From NCBI GenBank assembly GCA_963692865.2, contig OY843592.1:2080001-2144000 (forward strand): a DNA stretch of 64,000 nt, written 5' to 3'. Under the pieces are notes generated by a model. That model saw only the letters and a program-made list of their open reading frames with translations. It was not told the DNA's origin and did not search any database. The translations under genes and the position numbers were made by a program. Position 1 is the first letter of the stretch, and every line of letters begins with the position of its first letter. Below, piece after piece: positions 7,531 to 10,073 of this stretch. This DNA is from a bacterium. GTDB taxonomy: Bacteria; UBA8248.

Positions 7531-8043
7531 ATGATCGGAGCCGATGCCTCCCCGTTAATCGTCTTTGCCAAGATTGGTCGCCTGAGGTTTTTGAAAGAAC
7601 TCTACGATGAGGTGTTGATAGGGCCTGTAGTGAAGGAGGAGACAATCGACGCCGGCAAGGTTGTTCGCGCCTTGGGCGTAGAGCAACTCGAATCCGCTAT
7701 GGAAGACGGCTGGCTGCAGGTGGTTCGCTTGACTGGTGAAGAACAAGACCTGATGCGACGACTCAGTGACCGCTCTCGGCTCGATAACGGGGAGTCCGAG
7801 TCTATCGCGCTTGCGAGTGCACGGGGCTTGCAACTGATCGTTGACGATAAAGAGGCCCGAAGCATGGCCGCCGCCGCGGGAATAGAACACATCGGCGCTG
7901 TCGGTGCATTGTTGGAAGCATACTTTCGAGGACATCTCGACTTGGAGGAACTGGAAGTCACGGTTCAGGACATTACCCGGATTCTGTGGCTTTCCCCATC
8001 CGTTGTGGCGGAAGTATTGCGAATCGCGCGGGAGGCGAAGTGA
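7531..8043 (+). CDS. PIN-domain/DUF3368-like toxin
   Basis: ADASPLI, V..E, LDNGESESIALA and IVDDKEAR acidic PIN motifs. Confidence 0.85.
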   Translation: MIGADASPLIVFAKIGRLRFLKELYDEVLIGPVVKEETIDAGKVVRALGVEQLESAMEDGWLQVVRLTGEEQDLMRRLSDRSRLDNGESESIALASARGLQLIVDDKEARSMAAAAGIEHIGAVGALLEAYFRGHLDLEELEVTVQDITRILWLSPSVVAEVLRIAREAK

Positions 8044-8360
8044 TGAAAAAAGAGCGTATGGTGGGCGCGAGGCTTCCCCTGGAACTGGTCCGCGAACTGG
8101 AACTCATCGAGAACGTGGAGCAGTCCGACCGTTCGACCACCCTGCGAAAGCTGCTGTCGAACGCCGTCCGGCAGTGGAAGCTGGAGCACTACGCCCGGCT
8201 GTACGGGGACGGGAAGGTGACCCTCGCGCGGGCGGCCCGCGATGCGGGAGTTTCCCTGTGGGAGATGATGGACTATGCGCGCATACGAAAAACGCCGGTC
8301 CAATACGACCTCGAAGATCTCGAGCGGGACCTGCAAACCATCCATCAAGGGGATGCGTAG
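8043..8360 (+). CDS. UPF0175-like antitoxin with RHH-like N-terminus
   Basis: VGARLPLEL...DRSTTLRKLL; LYGDGKVTLARAARDAGVSLWEM; ATG overlaps the toxin stop. Confidence 0.8.
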   Translation: MKKERMVGARLPLELVRELELIENVEQSDRSTTLRKLLSNAVRQWKLEHYARLYGDGKVTLARAARDAGVSLWEMMDYARIRKTPVQYDLEDLERDLQTIHQGDA

Positions 8361-8463
8361 CTCAAATTCGGTTTGAACAGGTGTTGCCCTCTCGACCCGC
8401 ATGAATGGGTTCCCCCCTGTCGATGTTCGCCCCGACGCGTCTGCGCGATTGATGATGCGCGGC

Positions 8464-8493
8464 TTGACACCAAGTCTTTGTTATCGTTAGTCT
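8464..8493 (+). promoter_or_regulatory. Sigma70-like promoter upstream of the eL13-like domain gene
   Basis: TTGACA-18 bp-TAGTCT. Confidence 0.45.
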
Positions 8494-8545
8494 TAACCCG
8501 TAAGTTTTCTTATTTCTCTTACCGCCCCCTTACAATCCTTTGAAG

Positions 8546-9322
8546 ATGGTTTTCTGCCGGGACGAATTATCGACCTCAAAGGGGGGCGCGAAAATCAAAA
8601 AGAAACTTTTCAACCGCATCGCGCGTCACAAGGGTTCCACACCTGCCGAACCGGATGAGGGGCATGAAATTCCGCCTCCCTCGGCCATCGAACCGGGAGT
8701 GCCGTATTCGGCTGAAGATCCGGAGGGCGAAAGCTATGGCTCTCATATGGAGTTGGAGCTGCTGGCTGCCGATGAGCCTTCGCGCACGGATTCGACGAAC
8801 GGTGTGGATGCCGAAGAAAGCGGCCGCCATGTCGCAGCAGAGGCATCGGCGGCCTTGGTCCCGGACGATTCACCGGATGATTCCGAACCGTCTCGTGAGG
8901 TCGAGGCGCACCGGGAGTATGGTCTTGAAATGGAAGTTTTGGCTTCGCCGGGAGTAGACGAGTCGCCTGCTGCGCCGGAGCCGTCTCAAGAAGATGATGA
9001 AACCGTCCCGGATGCAGCCGAAAGCGTCCCGGAGGTTCCTGCGTCCGAACCGGAGAGCCTCGATGCGAGTGGTGGGGAAACTGCGGACGACCCCGCGGAT
9101 GCTCCACCGGAAACGTCCGCAGCGGACAATGGACTCTCCGCCCTCGTCAGGGATGCGCGCGGCGACTGGCGGCCCGGAAAGGGCTTCAGCCGGAGCGAAT
9201 TGCGGGAAGCCGGCCTGAGCCTCGCCGAGGCCGCGCGTCTGCGTATCCGCGTCGACAAGCGCCGCCGCAATTCGCACCCGATGAACGTCGCGGCCCTTGA
9301 AAAAGCGAAAAATAAAGCCTGA
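8546..9322 (+). CDS. Acidic low-complexity protein with C-terminal ribosomal protein eL13 (L13e)-like domain
   Basis: C-terminus WRPGKGFSRSELREAGLSLAEAARLRIRVDKRRRNSHPMNVAALEK matches the eL13 pattern; start uncertain (ATG 8546 or ATC 8594). Confidence 0.75.
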   Translation: MVFCRDELSTSKGGAKIKKKLFNRIARHKGSTPAEPDEGHEIPPPSAIEPGVPYSAEDPEGESYGSHMELELLAADEPSRTDSTNGVDAEESGRHVAAEASAALVPDDSPDDSEPSREVEAHREYGLEMEVLASPGVDESPAAPEPSQEDDETVPDAAESVPEVPASEPESLDASGGETADDPADAPPETSAADNGLSALVRDARGDWRPGKGFSRSELREAGLSLAEAARLRIRVDKRRRNSHPMNVAALEKAKNKA

Positions 9323-9339
9323 GGCGAGGCGACGTGCCC

Positions 9340-9810
9340 CTATGCTATTTCTCTCAAATCAAGTTGGTTAATAACTTGGAGCCGATGATTGCCAGACACG
9401 TCCTCGTTTATTTTCCGCAGGACACTGAGTGATATTTGTCTCTGTCCGTTAGATTGTAATTTGCCTGTCTTCTGCCAAGGTTTCATGCCAGGACCGTTAT
9501 AGACAATTTCAAGTTCGTGTTCGGGAGTCAGTCTAAGCACAATGAGGTGCTCAGGTTCGCTCGACATTGCAACGCCTTTATTTCCTTGCGTGAATTTGAT
9601 CTGAACGAACGTCCCTTGTTTTGTCTTGGCACGTGCGTTTGGGTGGAATTCTCTAATAGCTTCAAATCAAATACGTATGCGGCGATGACTTCACCAATAC
9701 TGCCGACCAGATGACCATCCAACGTAAACTTACGGTTTGGAAATAAAGTTTCCAGTTCGGCAACCGTCTTATAAAGGTTTTTTAATAACCTGCCTAAATC
9801 ATTCCATTTC
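9340..9810 (-). pseudogene. Disrupted DUF6998-like (PD-(D/E)XK-like) protein
   Basis: ELETLFPNRKFTLDGHLVGSIGEVIAAY, then a 1-nt frameshift near 9632 restores HDAKT...VQIKFTQ...LIVLRL...YNGPG; in-frame TAG at the 5' end; low GC. Confidence 0.6.
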
Positions 9811-9882
9811 TATTCTTTTCTCACGCTAGAAAGCCTTGGTATGAGAAAGGACTGAGGGGCGGACGATGTATCGAGAAAACCT

Positions 9883-9957
9883 TGGCTCCGGCGGTAGGAT
9901 TCGAACCTACAACCCATCGGTTAACAGCCGATTGCTCTGCCGTTGAGCTACGCCGGA
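9883..9957 (-). tRNA. tRNA-Asn (GTT)
   Basis: TCCGGCGTAGCTCAACGGCAGAGCAATCGGCTGTTAACCGATGGGTTGTAGGTTCGAATCCTACCGCCGGAGCCA cloverleaf with encoded CCA. Confidence 0.97.
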
Positions 9958-10073
9958 GTGAGAGGCGTTGCGCTTGAGTCTGGATTCTACCGGATTCGGC
10001 GCCAACTCCCAAGCGTAAGGGGGTTATAGGGAAGCGGGCTTAAGGTTGTCAAGGCTACCGGGTGAGCCGAAAA

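Follow-up and report, generated by a model that had tools for sequence, protein, structure and literature searches.

The gene at positions 8546–9322 (+) of the window, by which we mean the whole 64,000-nucleotide stretch of DNA analysed here (contig OY843592.1, positions 2,080,001 to 2,144,000, from a marine bacterium), encodes an acidic protein with a basic C-terminal domain. This domain is truly homologous to the core of eL13, a ribosomal protein of archaea and eukaryotes, as seen by profile, in the sequences of solved structures and by fold. From sequence comparison, we favor the view that the family to which the protein belongs is an offshoot of a bacterial lineage of helicase-partner proteins and not a ribosomal protein.

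The C-terminal domain has the core fold of eL13

The domain lies at the very end of the reading frame.

9128–9319 (+): eL13-like domain, consisting of a beta-hairpin, two short helices, an extended D-K-R-R-R segment and a long helix (Pfam, NCBIfam, AlphaFold2, Foldseek)

Pfam detects PF01294 (Ribosomal_L13e) in the whole protein at 32.6 bits (E 9e-8) and in the 64-aa C-terminal piece at 36.3 bits (E 7e-9), against a cut-off of 24.9, with the match covering only model positions 62/63 to 98/106 of 180 instead of the full-length architecture of the family. The NCBIfam model of archaeal L13e, NF008914, matches at 56–60 bits (E 1e-16 to 2e-15) over positions 24–76 of 83, which is under its equivalog cut-off of 96; ten short stand-alone L13e-like proteins, described below, score 56–82 bits with this model and all ten likewise fall under 96. 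Among the sequences of the PDB, the top true match is 9e6q_AH, the eL13 chain in the 50S subunit of Pyrobaculum calidifontis (E 7.7e-7 with the single sequence and 1.4e-13 with a profile), and dozens of eukaryotic eL13 chains rank after it.

An AlphaFold2 model of the domain alone, built from an 18-row alignment, has a predicted local distance difference test score (pLDDT) of 88.8 and a predicted template-modeling score (pTM) of 0.71. A Foldseek search of the PDB with this model returned 41 matches at E ≤ 0.001, and the top 50 are entirely ribosome or pre-ribosome entries, many of them chains that the sequence searches had named as eL13. The superpositions give template-modeling (TM) scores of 0.65–0.81 and root-mean-square deviations of 2.2–3.2 Å over 61–70 columns. 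In the alignment with eukaryotic eL13 (query 5–57 against chain 61–116/117), the eukaryotic chains have some three additional residues behind the R-R-R segment, and the window domain is therefore of the prokaryotic type. What the protein shares with eL13 is the sequence signatures and the core fold of its last 60 residues. It differs in that it holds only some quarter of the Pfam model, has roughly 200 acidic, disordered residues joined to the domain, is bacterial and found in one genus, is multi-copy and fast-evolving, and scores below the equivalog level.

The eL13 signatures, W-R-x-G-K-G-F-S and D-K-R-R-R-x-x-H, show no variation among 23 aligned members of the family or among 18 domain sequences that include four helicase-partner proteins. 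Additionally, the domain is under purifying selection: its ratio of nonsynonymous to synonymous substitution rates (dN/dS) is 0.11–0.28 in each of the 12 loci compared with the window. One other candidate relative, the IcmE/DotG decapeptide repeats (PF25296), was rejected: the profile matches these repeats only through the local G-F-S-x-x-E-L-x-x-A-G pattern, over 14–19 columns per repeat, and the rest of the domain is unmatched.

A first-pass annotation of this DNA, made from the letters alone, had already proposed the eL13-like end, and had named the lack of a profile or structural match, or a chimeric assembly, as what would speak against it. The profile and fold matches are real and the assembly shows no sign of chimerism, so neither applies. 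Contigs from sequencing runs X1 and X2 span 8300–9500 with 0 differences, and those of X4 tile the stretch with 0 differences, without joints or indels. Because the assembly may itself have been made from these runs, their agreement is a matter of consistency and not of independence.

The closest relatives of the domain are C-termini of helicase partners

A profile of the 18 domain sequences was searched against 1.84 billion representative proteins and found 1188 at E ≤ 0.001, with 295 at E ≤ 1e-10. Classification drew on a working set of 258 proteins, of which 249 matched over at least 40 columns: 113 belong to the window family, 78 are proteins of at least 450 aa with the domain at their extreme C-terminus, 31 are short basic proteins and 27 are others, mostly fragments. 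The short basic proteins (55–160 aa) stand alone with the domain near their N-terminus, and they are called L13e-like here from their Pfam and NCBIfam scores and from one named member, the Thermofilum protein P0104. In one of these short proteins, P0234, an extra C-terminal segment is a helix-hairpin-helix by Pfam (HHH_5), and by eye the same holds for P0238 and P0243; the joining of such a segment to an L13e-like module would be a further nucleic-acid-binding combination.

The long proteins form a well-conserved family, with many invariant columns in an alignment of 40 rows (A3). They are 600–1000 aa long and run from an N-terminal amphipathic helix through a disordered Ser/Thr/acidic stretch and a conserved core of about 450 aa to the eL13-like C-terminus. 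PF01294 is the only Pfam match in all eight that were scanned (five of them above the cut-off), and PADLOC gave no match for the two that it was run on. A homolog of the defense helicase DruE (YprA family) lies directly downstream on the same strand, overlapping or close, in 13 of 16 long-protein loci (4 genomic and 12 metagenomic); the other three end at a contig end within the gene, so that all 13 informative loci have it. The two-gene modules lie as follows.

L021:3391–10390: long protein and DruE-type helicase
L022:3484–10390: long protein and DruE-type helicase
L023:3841–10368: long protein and DruE-type helicase
L024:3904–10432: long protein and DruE-type helicase
L026–L032, L036 and L037: further two-gene modules

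The helicase frame of L023 is split in two. The downstream helicase is about 1400 aa long, and the copy in L021 is recognized by PADLOC as DruE1 (E 6.5e-160), with DEAD, Helicase_C and MZB domains in Pfam and no nuclease domain. Two reports (10.64898/2026.05.13.724758, 10.1101/2025.09.15.676423) describe a compact DruE that lacks a nuclease and has one partner only (type III-B or III-like), and by description the L021-type modules fit these systems. The terms 'eL13', 'L13e' and 'ribosomal protein' are absent from the main texts of the Druantia and YprA papers examined (for 10.64898/2026.05.12.722862 this holds for 'L13e' only), supplements not being covered, and the sole match to a word beginning with 'L13' is part of a mutation name. 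A full-text search of the literature found no paper linking an eL13 domain to the partners of DruE-type helicases.

The helicase-partner C-termini are the group most similar to the window domain by profile score and by pairwise identity. The BLASTP alignment of the window protein (P0001) to one long protein, P0125, has an E value of 5e-22 and, as counted by eye, 37 identical residues among its final 66 columns, more than were seen with any archaeal chain. The 62-column domain served for two trees, one of 134 rows with a quick search and one of 69 rows with a careful search. In both, the window family is one clade (99 in the Shimodaira–Hasegawa-like approximate likelihood-ratio test, SH-aLRT; 96 in the ultrafast bootstrap, UFboot) that falls among the long proteins, beside P0125 and P0160. 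It is because of this placement in both trees, together with the pairwise match to P0125, that we favor descent from the helicase-partner lineage.

Several results weigh against this descent. The placement among the long proteins is weak, with SH-aLRT values of 80–85 in the first tree and UFboot values of 41–43 and SH-aLRT values of 51–83 in the second. Furthermore, the approximately unbiased (AU) test keeps a tree that joins the window family with the short L13e-like proteins (p 0.687), which leaves room for a direct archaeal origin. Away from the C-terminal part, BLASTP shows no significant similarity to P0125. N-terminal homology to the long partners was rejected as well: a hidden Markov model of 49 long-protein N-termini returned 31 real sequences among its top 60, against 29 reversed or shuffled decoys. 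No DruE homolog was found in the protein's own genome and no DruE-type gene lies directly downstream, and across the genus no PF01294 match falls within an open frame of more than 550 aa; a present functional link to a helicase can therefore not be claimed.

As for the relation to described defense proteins, the window protein shares with the DruE partners of Druantia III-like modules the same domain in the same place, the extreme C-terminus. It differs from them in lacking the core of about 450 aa and a helicase neighbor, and in carrying YG-L-x-L-E-L-L repeats instead. PADLOC assigns it to 0 families and Pfam yields PF01294 alone, which is not the canonical DruH/YjiT pattern. The long proteins themselves are candidate homologs of DruH and no more, given their lack of PADLOC matches (two of two) and their single Pfam family (eight of eight). 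A search of the PDB sequences with the domain profile matched no DruH chain. With Escherichia coli DruH (YjiT family, Druantia III-A) the likeness is one of layout only, that of a helicase partner with a C-terminal domain that supplies basic residues for the binding of single-stranded DNA (ssDNA), as the main text of 10.64898/2026.05.12.722862 describes it.

An acidic, disordered region with a repeated motif precedes the domain

The open reading frame (ORF) is an unbroken run of 258 codons that ends in a TGA stop at 9320–9322, with a TTG in frame at 8540. As a whole the protein has an isoelectric point (pI) of 4.5, with 56 Asp and Glu and 25 Pro residues by composition count. This charge is unevenly spread: a basic head (residues 15–35) has a net charge of about +6, residues 36–198 have a net charge of about −42 (46 Asp and Glu against 4 Lys and Arg, with 22 Pro), and residues 199–258 are basic again, with a pI of 11.6, 16 Lys and Arg, and a charge of about +9. 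The elements that precede the domain are listed here.

8588–8650 (+): basic N-terminal segment (residues 15–35 of the 258-aa reading), aligned in most of the 23 rows of alignment A1, with tblastn matches in 19 loci
8651–9139 (+): acidic, Pro/Glu/Ala/Ser-rich disordered region, from AlphaFold2 and net charge
8735–8767 (+): motif copy 1, YG-x2-M-E-L-E-L-L-A, from the sequence and alignment A1
8918–8944 (+): motif copy 2, YG-L-E-M-E-V-L-A, whose Y, G, E and L do not vary in alignment A1

The composition and the motif positions bear out the first-pass description of an acidic region with a twice-repeated motif and a basic end of about 60 residues. In the AlphaFold2 model of the whole protein (23-row alignment), residues 1–200 have block-mean pLDDT values of 40–57 and are without secondary structure, and a confident small domain follows at the end. 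The acidic region varies strongly in length among relatives, in proteins of 146–541 aa. Its motif, YG-L-x-L-E-[LV]-L with acidic and Ser residues behind it, occurs 0–4 times per family protein, and 165 copies were counted in 113 family members against 0.05 expected from shuffled sequences. At the DNA level, a tandem-repeat finder reports a single array in the gene (12 nt × 1.9 copies, 8861–8883); it does not pick up the motif repeats because these are too diverged as DNA. A complex prediction of the motif region (residues 108–150) with the C-terminal domain (residues 196–258) gave a score of 0.00 (mark 0.32), which is evidence neither way, and the ESM Atlas holds no usable match for the window protein.

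The family is confined to one genus and evolves quickly

A word-indexed search collected 104 family proteins of 141–452 aa, and a second search added 17 longer ones. PF01294 is precomputed in 97 of the 104, and a few members, from Nitrospinota/Nitrospinae and Rhodospirillaceae metagenome-assembled genomes (MAGs), carry the NCBI name 'ribosomal protein L13e'. In species-representative genomes there are 20 loci of the window type, at most three per genome, in Nitrospinota or unlabelled MAGs. When whole genomes across the phylum were scanned, the domain turned up in 17 of the other 22 from the window's genus and in none of the 28 beyond it, with 1–3 matches per genome, which is not the conserved presence across a lineage that would be expected of a constituent of the ribosome. 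In the five genomes of the genus that lack the gene, the best matches to its NmrA-like neighbor are only 25–28% identical; the locus is not comparable at this identity, and a comparison with an empty site was abandoned for that reason.

The window gene occupies a conserved orthologous site, where the flanking genes are 78–99% identical in 14–15 loci, whereas its own protein is merely 45–60% identical and of variable length. Extra copies elsewhere in the genomes adjoin transposase-, integrase- and lipoprotein-like ORFs, as judged by eye from N-termini. Two of these paralogs are each split into two ORFs (L010:4289–5385 and L020:5737–7010), by a frameshift or a sequencing error. Among mobile elements, a tblastn search with the 64-aa domain gave 0 matches on 72,556 plasmid and 50,697 phage records. 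For viral contigs, 0 of 22 matches to a peptide pattern were confirmed; as a single pattern was used, this is a weak absence.

A conserved leader and two candidate start codons

The region upstream of the coding sequence is conserved among loci and holds the elements listed below, where SD stands for Shine–Dalgarno.

8464–8493 (+): promoter-like pair, TTGACA (8464–8469) and TAGTCT (8488–8493) with an 18-nt spacer, near-unchanged in 14 of 15 aligned upstream regions
8520–8529 (+): C-rich anti-SD element, TACCGCCCCC, conserved in 19 of 19 aligned leaders
8546–8548 (+): ATG, the first canonical in-frame start, new in this lineage, present in the window and in L002, with no SD before it
8578–8596 (+): SD-like run (G-run 8581–8586), the lost ancestral start (GCG, 8588–8590) and the ATC at 8594–8596, from the 19-locus alignment

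The promoter-like pair is conserved in orthologs and in paralogs at other genomic sites, and would serve as a promoter. A scan for sigma-70 consensus returned 0 sites and passed over this pair because the second hexamer matches at just three of six positions; the TTGACA element emerged from the alignment. Since both the hexamer pair and the anti-SD element accompany the paralogs elsewhere, the duplicated unit includes its own control region. Terminator-like hairpins number 3, against 1.6 expected.

The predicted duplex between the anti-SD element and the SD has an energy of −18.8 kcal/mol in the window and −16.6 kcal/mol on average, compared with −11.6 kcal/mol when the anti-SD is shuffled. 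Furthermore, all 19 leaders have their SD G-run in a predicted helix at P ≥ 0.96, the SD pairing that marks the translational type of riboregulator. It is a reasonable inference, rather than a demonstration, from these predicted folds that the leader would mask the ribosome-binding site, and pairing of the conserved 5′ leader with that site probably regulates the gene.

The first-pass annotation had pointed to an SD-like run before the in-frame ATC and suggested a non-AUG start. The run is indeed present, with its G-run 7 nt upstream of the ATC, and the SD is conserved among loci. The ancestral start was an ATG, beginning M-[NK]-I-K-K, which in the window has become the GCG at 8588–8590; it is the only ATG of the two positions in 10 of the 19 homologous loci. 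The codon aligned with the ATC is the sole ATG in seven further loci, L009 has an ATG at both positions (which brings the loci with ATG there to 8 of 19), and L002, like the window, has neither. What tells against a start at the ATC is the in-frame ATG at 8546 that the window and L002 have gained upstream, where L012, the closest leader that keeps the ancestral start, has ACG. As judged from this alignment, with the ancestral ATG lost in the window, the ATG at 8546 and the ATC at 8594 are equal candidates for the start.

Proposed function and alternatives

We propose, at about even chances, that the product is a lineage-specific, cytoplasmic nucleic-acid-binding protein with a basic N-terminus, a disordered acidic region and an eL13-type domain, which is riboregulated and arose as an offshoot of the helicase partners. 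The cytoplasm is suggested as its location because no signal-peptide-like hydrophobic stretch is visible in the translation of the ORF and no homologs of TssC, VirB4 or FHIPEP are found in its own genome, which is 97.4% complete. The basic C-terminal domain would bind nucleic acid (RNA or ssDNA) through the retained eL13 signature residues, and the acidic region could compete with this binding or tune it. The repeated motifs in that region may offer several docking sites for a partner, and translation would be held back by pairing of the C-rich element of the leader with the ribosome-binding site. Beyond the points on descent given above, three results count against this proposal. Covariation in the leader is thin, with one of four consensus pairs changed on both sides (in three sequences) and the helix mostly invariant; the fold of the window's own leader is unexceptional (z −1.09); and, as the window is without both ancestral ATGs, its translation may be weak.

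From its charge, the acidic region may act as the autoinhibitory tail that the first-pass annotation had taken it for. A basic folded module and a long acidic disordered stretch in one chain are also what acidic-tail autoinhibited nucleic-acid binders have, and the acidic tail of HMGB1 is an example of such an autoinhibitory disordered region. Unlike HMGB1-type tails, the acidic region of the window protein carries a conserved hydrophobic motif, which suggests the binding of a partner and not mere charge mimicry.

The same annotation had gone further, to a domain acquired from the archaeal or eukaryotic ribosome that now serves as an accessory or hibernation factor of the bacterial ribosome, inhibited by its own acidic region as a mimic of RNA. 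The homology to eL13 is true, the NF008914 score lies within the range of the short stand-alone proteins, the AU test retains a grouping with these proteins and the charge layout is compatible with autoinhibition. The role on the ribosome nevertheless fits poorly with a gene that is found in one genus only, in 1–3 copies of which some are split and some lie near mobile-type ORFs, that diverges far faster than its neighbors, that has no ribosomal gene context, and in which 36–45 of the 180 Pfam positions are present. To our knowledge, bacterial ribosomes have neither eL13 nor its full binding environment, which also counts against such a factor. We therefore regard this idea as very unlikely; its support does not go past the homology itself. 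Direct acquisition from an archaeal or eukaryotic ribosome loses ground too, as the closest relatives of the domain are the C-termini of bacterial DruE partners. Equally, there is only a slight chance, and we would put it lowest, that the gene is a decaying, functionless remnant in this genome. The loss of both ancestral starts, with GCG and ATC at the two ATG positions, and the split paralogs would agree with decay. The 258-codon frame is intact, however, the comparisons that gave the low dN/dS values of the domain take in this lineage, both the promoter-like pair and the leader elements are conserved, and L002, which has the same start arrangement, encodes a protein that is 40–50% different yet intact.

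It is also possible, if improbable, that the product is a host-directed 'eukaryotic-like' protein of an animal-associated symbiont, in which the motifs would mimic eukaryotic short linear motifs and the basic end would target the nucleus, nucleolus or pre-ribosomes. Relatives of the stretch are indeed present in runs labelled as sponge metagenomes: X5 shares 0.27 of the words, with contigs 90–99% alike over 22 of 30 bins, and X6 shares 0.21. Fast evolution, variation between 0 and 4 motifs and turnover of paralogs are, moreover, often seen in effector families. The hydrophobic-x-hydrophobic-hydrophobic core of the motif, with its acidic and Ser tail, presumably resembles SUMO-interaction motifs. 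Against export to a host stand the missing signal-like segment and secretion homologs on which the cytoplasmic location is based, and the prokaryotic type of the domain.

A defense-related role for a stand-alone sensor or decoy, in which the domain, without core and helicase, binds the nucleic acid of an invader or competes with partners borne on mobile elements, has in our judgment a small chance of being correct. The similarity of the domain to helicase-partner C-termini and the position of the gene in a small variable spot beside a UPF0175 gene and tRNA-Asn would suit it, and the main text of 10.64898/2026.05.12.722862 reports that the C-terminal domain of E. coli DruH, which is of a different family, aids ssDNA binding. 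It is set back by the lack of an own-genome DruE, of a PADLOC match, of plasmid or phage matches and of confirmed copies in viral contigs (one pattern), and by an orthologous position that is stable across at least 14 loci. A broader and still speculative version, to which we would give a somewhat greater though modest chance, sees the eL13 core as a mobile nucleic-acid-recognition module of bacterial immunity that forms the C-terminal sensor tip of the DruE partners. In the window protein this module would have been freed and joined to a multivalent acidic scaffold, and would act as a riboregulated sensor of invader nucleic acid or as a sequestering, condensate-forming protein. If that is true, an archaeal and eukaryotic ribosomal protein and a bacterial defense module have a common origin.

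Whichever function applies, the automatic name 'ribosomal protein L13e' is misleading for the bacterial members, for which a better-founded description can now be given. The eL13 core domain extends beyond the ribosomes of archaea and eukaryotes. In bacteria it is common, and mainly used, at the extreme C-terminus of DruE partners (13 of 13 informative loci), a large family that is still uncharacterised, and it is an example of a ribosomal-protein fold shared with immunity. If the domain binds nucleic acid in these partners, it gives a way to study how infection is sensed by compact Druantia-like systems. The window family would make a clean natural test case, with one small domain, an acidic region that carries a sharply conserved motif, and a leader predicted to mask the ribosome-binding site.

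Neighboring genes and samples

The gene has a GC content of 0.60–0.65, like its neighbors, and lies in a small variable spot that is bounded by the UPF0175 antitoxin-like gene on one side and by a DUF6998 fragment, next to tRNA-Asn, on the other; the downstream order is DUF6998 fragment, tRNA-Asn and NmrA-like gene. The fragment is a 74-aa ORF (9340–9567, −) that matches the C-terminal part of DUF6998 only (model positions 74–135 of 136), and it is on this account that we call it a gene fragment. It sits in a low-GC stretch (9200–9999, GC 0.44–0.51) that adjoins tRNA-Asn (9883–9957, −), and the arrangement looks like the scar that an old insertion left at the tRNA.

Upstream lies an overlapping pair (7531–8360), in which a 170-aa ORF (7531–8043) with no Pfam match is followed by the UPF0175 antitoxin-like gene (7986–8360). 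The UPF0175 gene is kept in most orthologous loci, and the 170-aa ORF is patchy among them, at full length in L005, L007 and L009 and as remnants in L002–L004 and L006. The 170-aa ORF is at most a speculative candidate for a PIN-like toxin partner of the UPF0175 gene.

The 23 runs listed with sequence of the stretch include no RNA run. In X1 and X4, contigs of low depth (6–7) match only the C-terminal domain (9167–9309), with 10–12 differences, and diverge past 9309; these samples also contain a second copy or strain whose 3′ flank differs.

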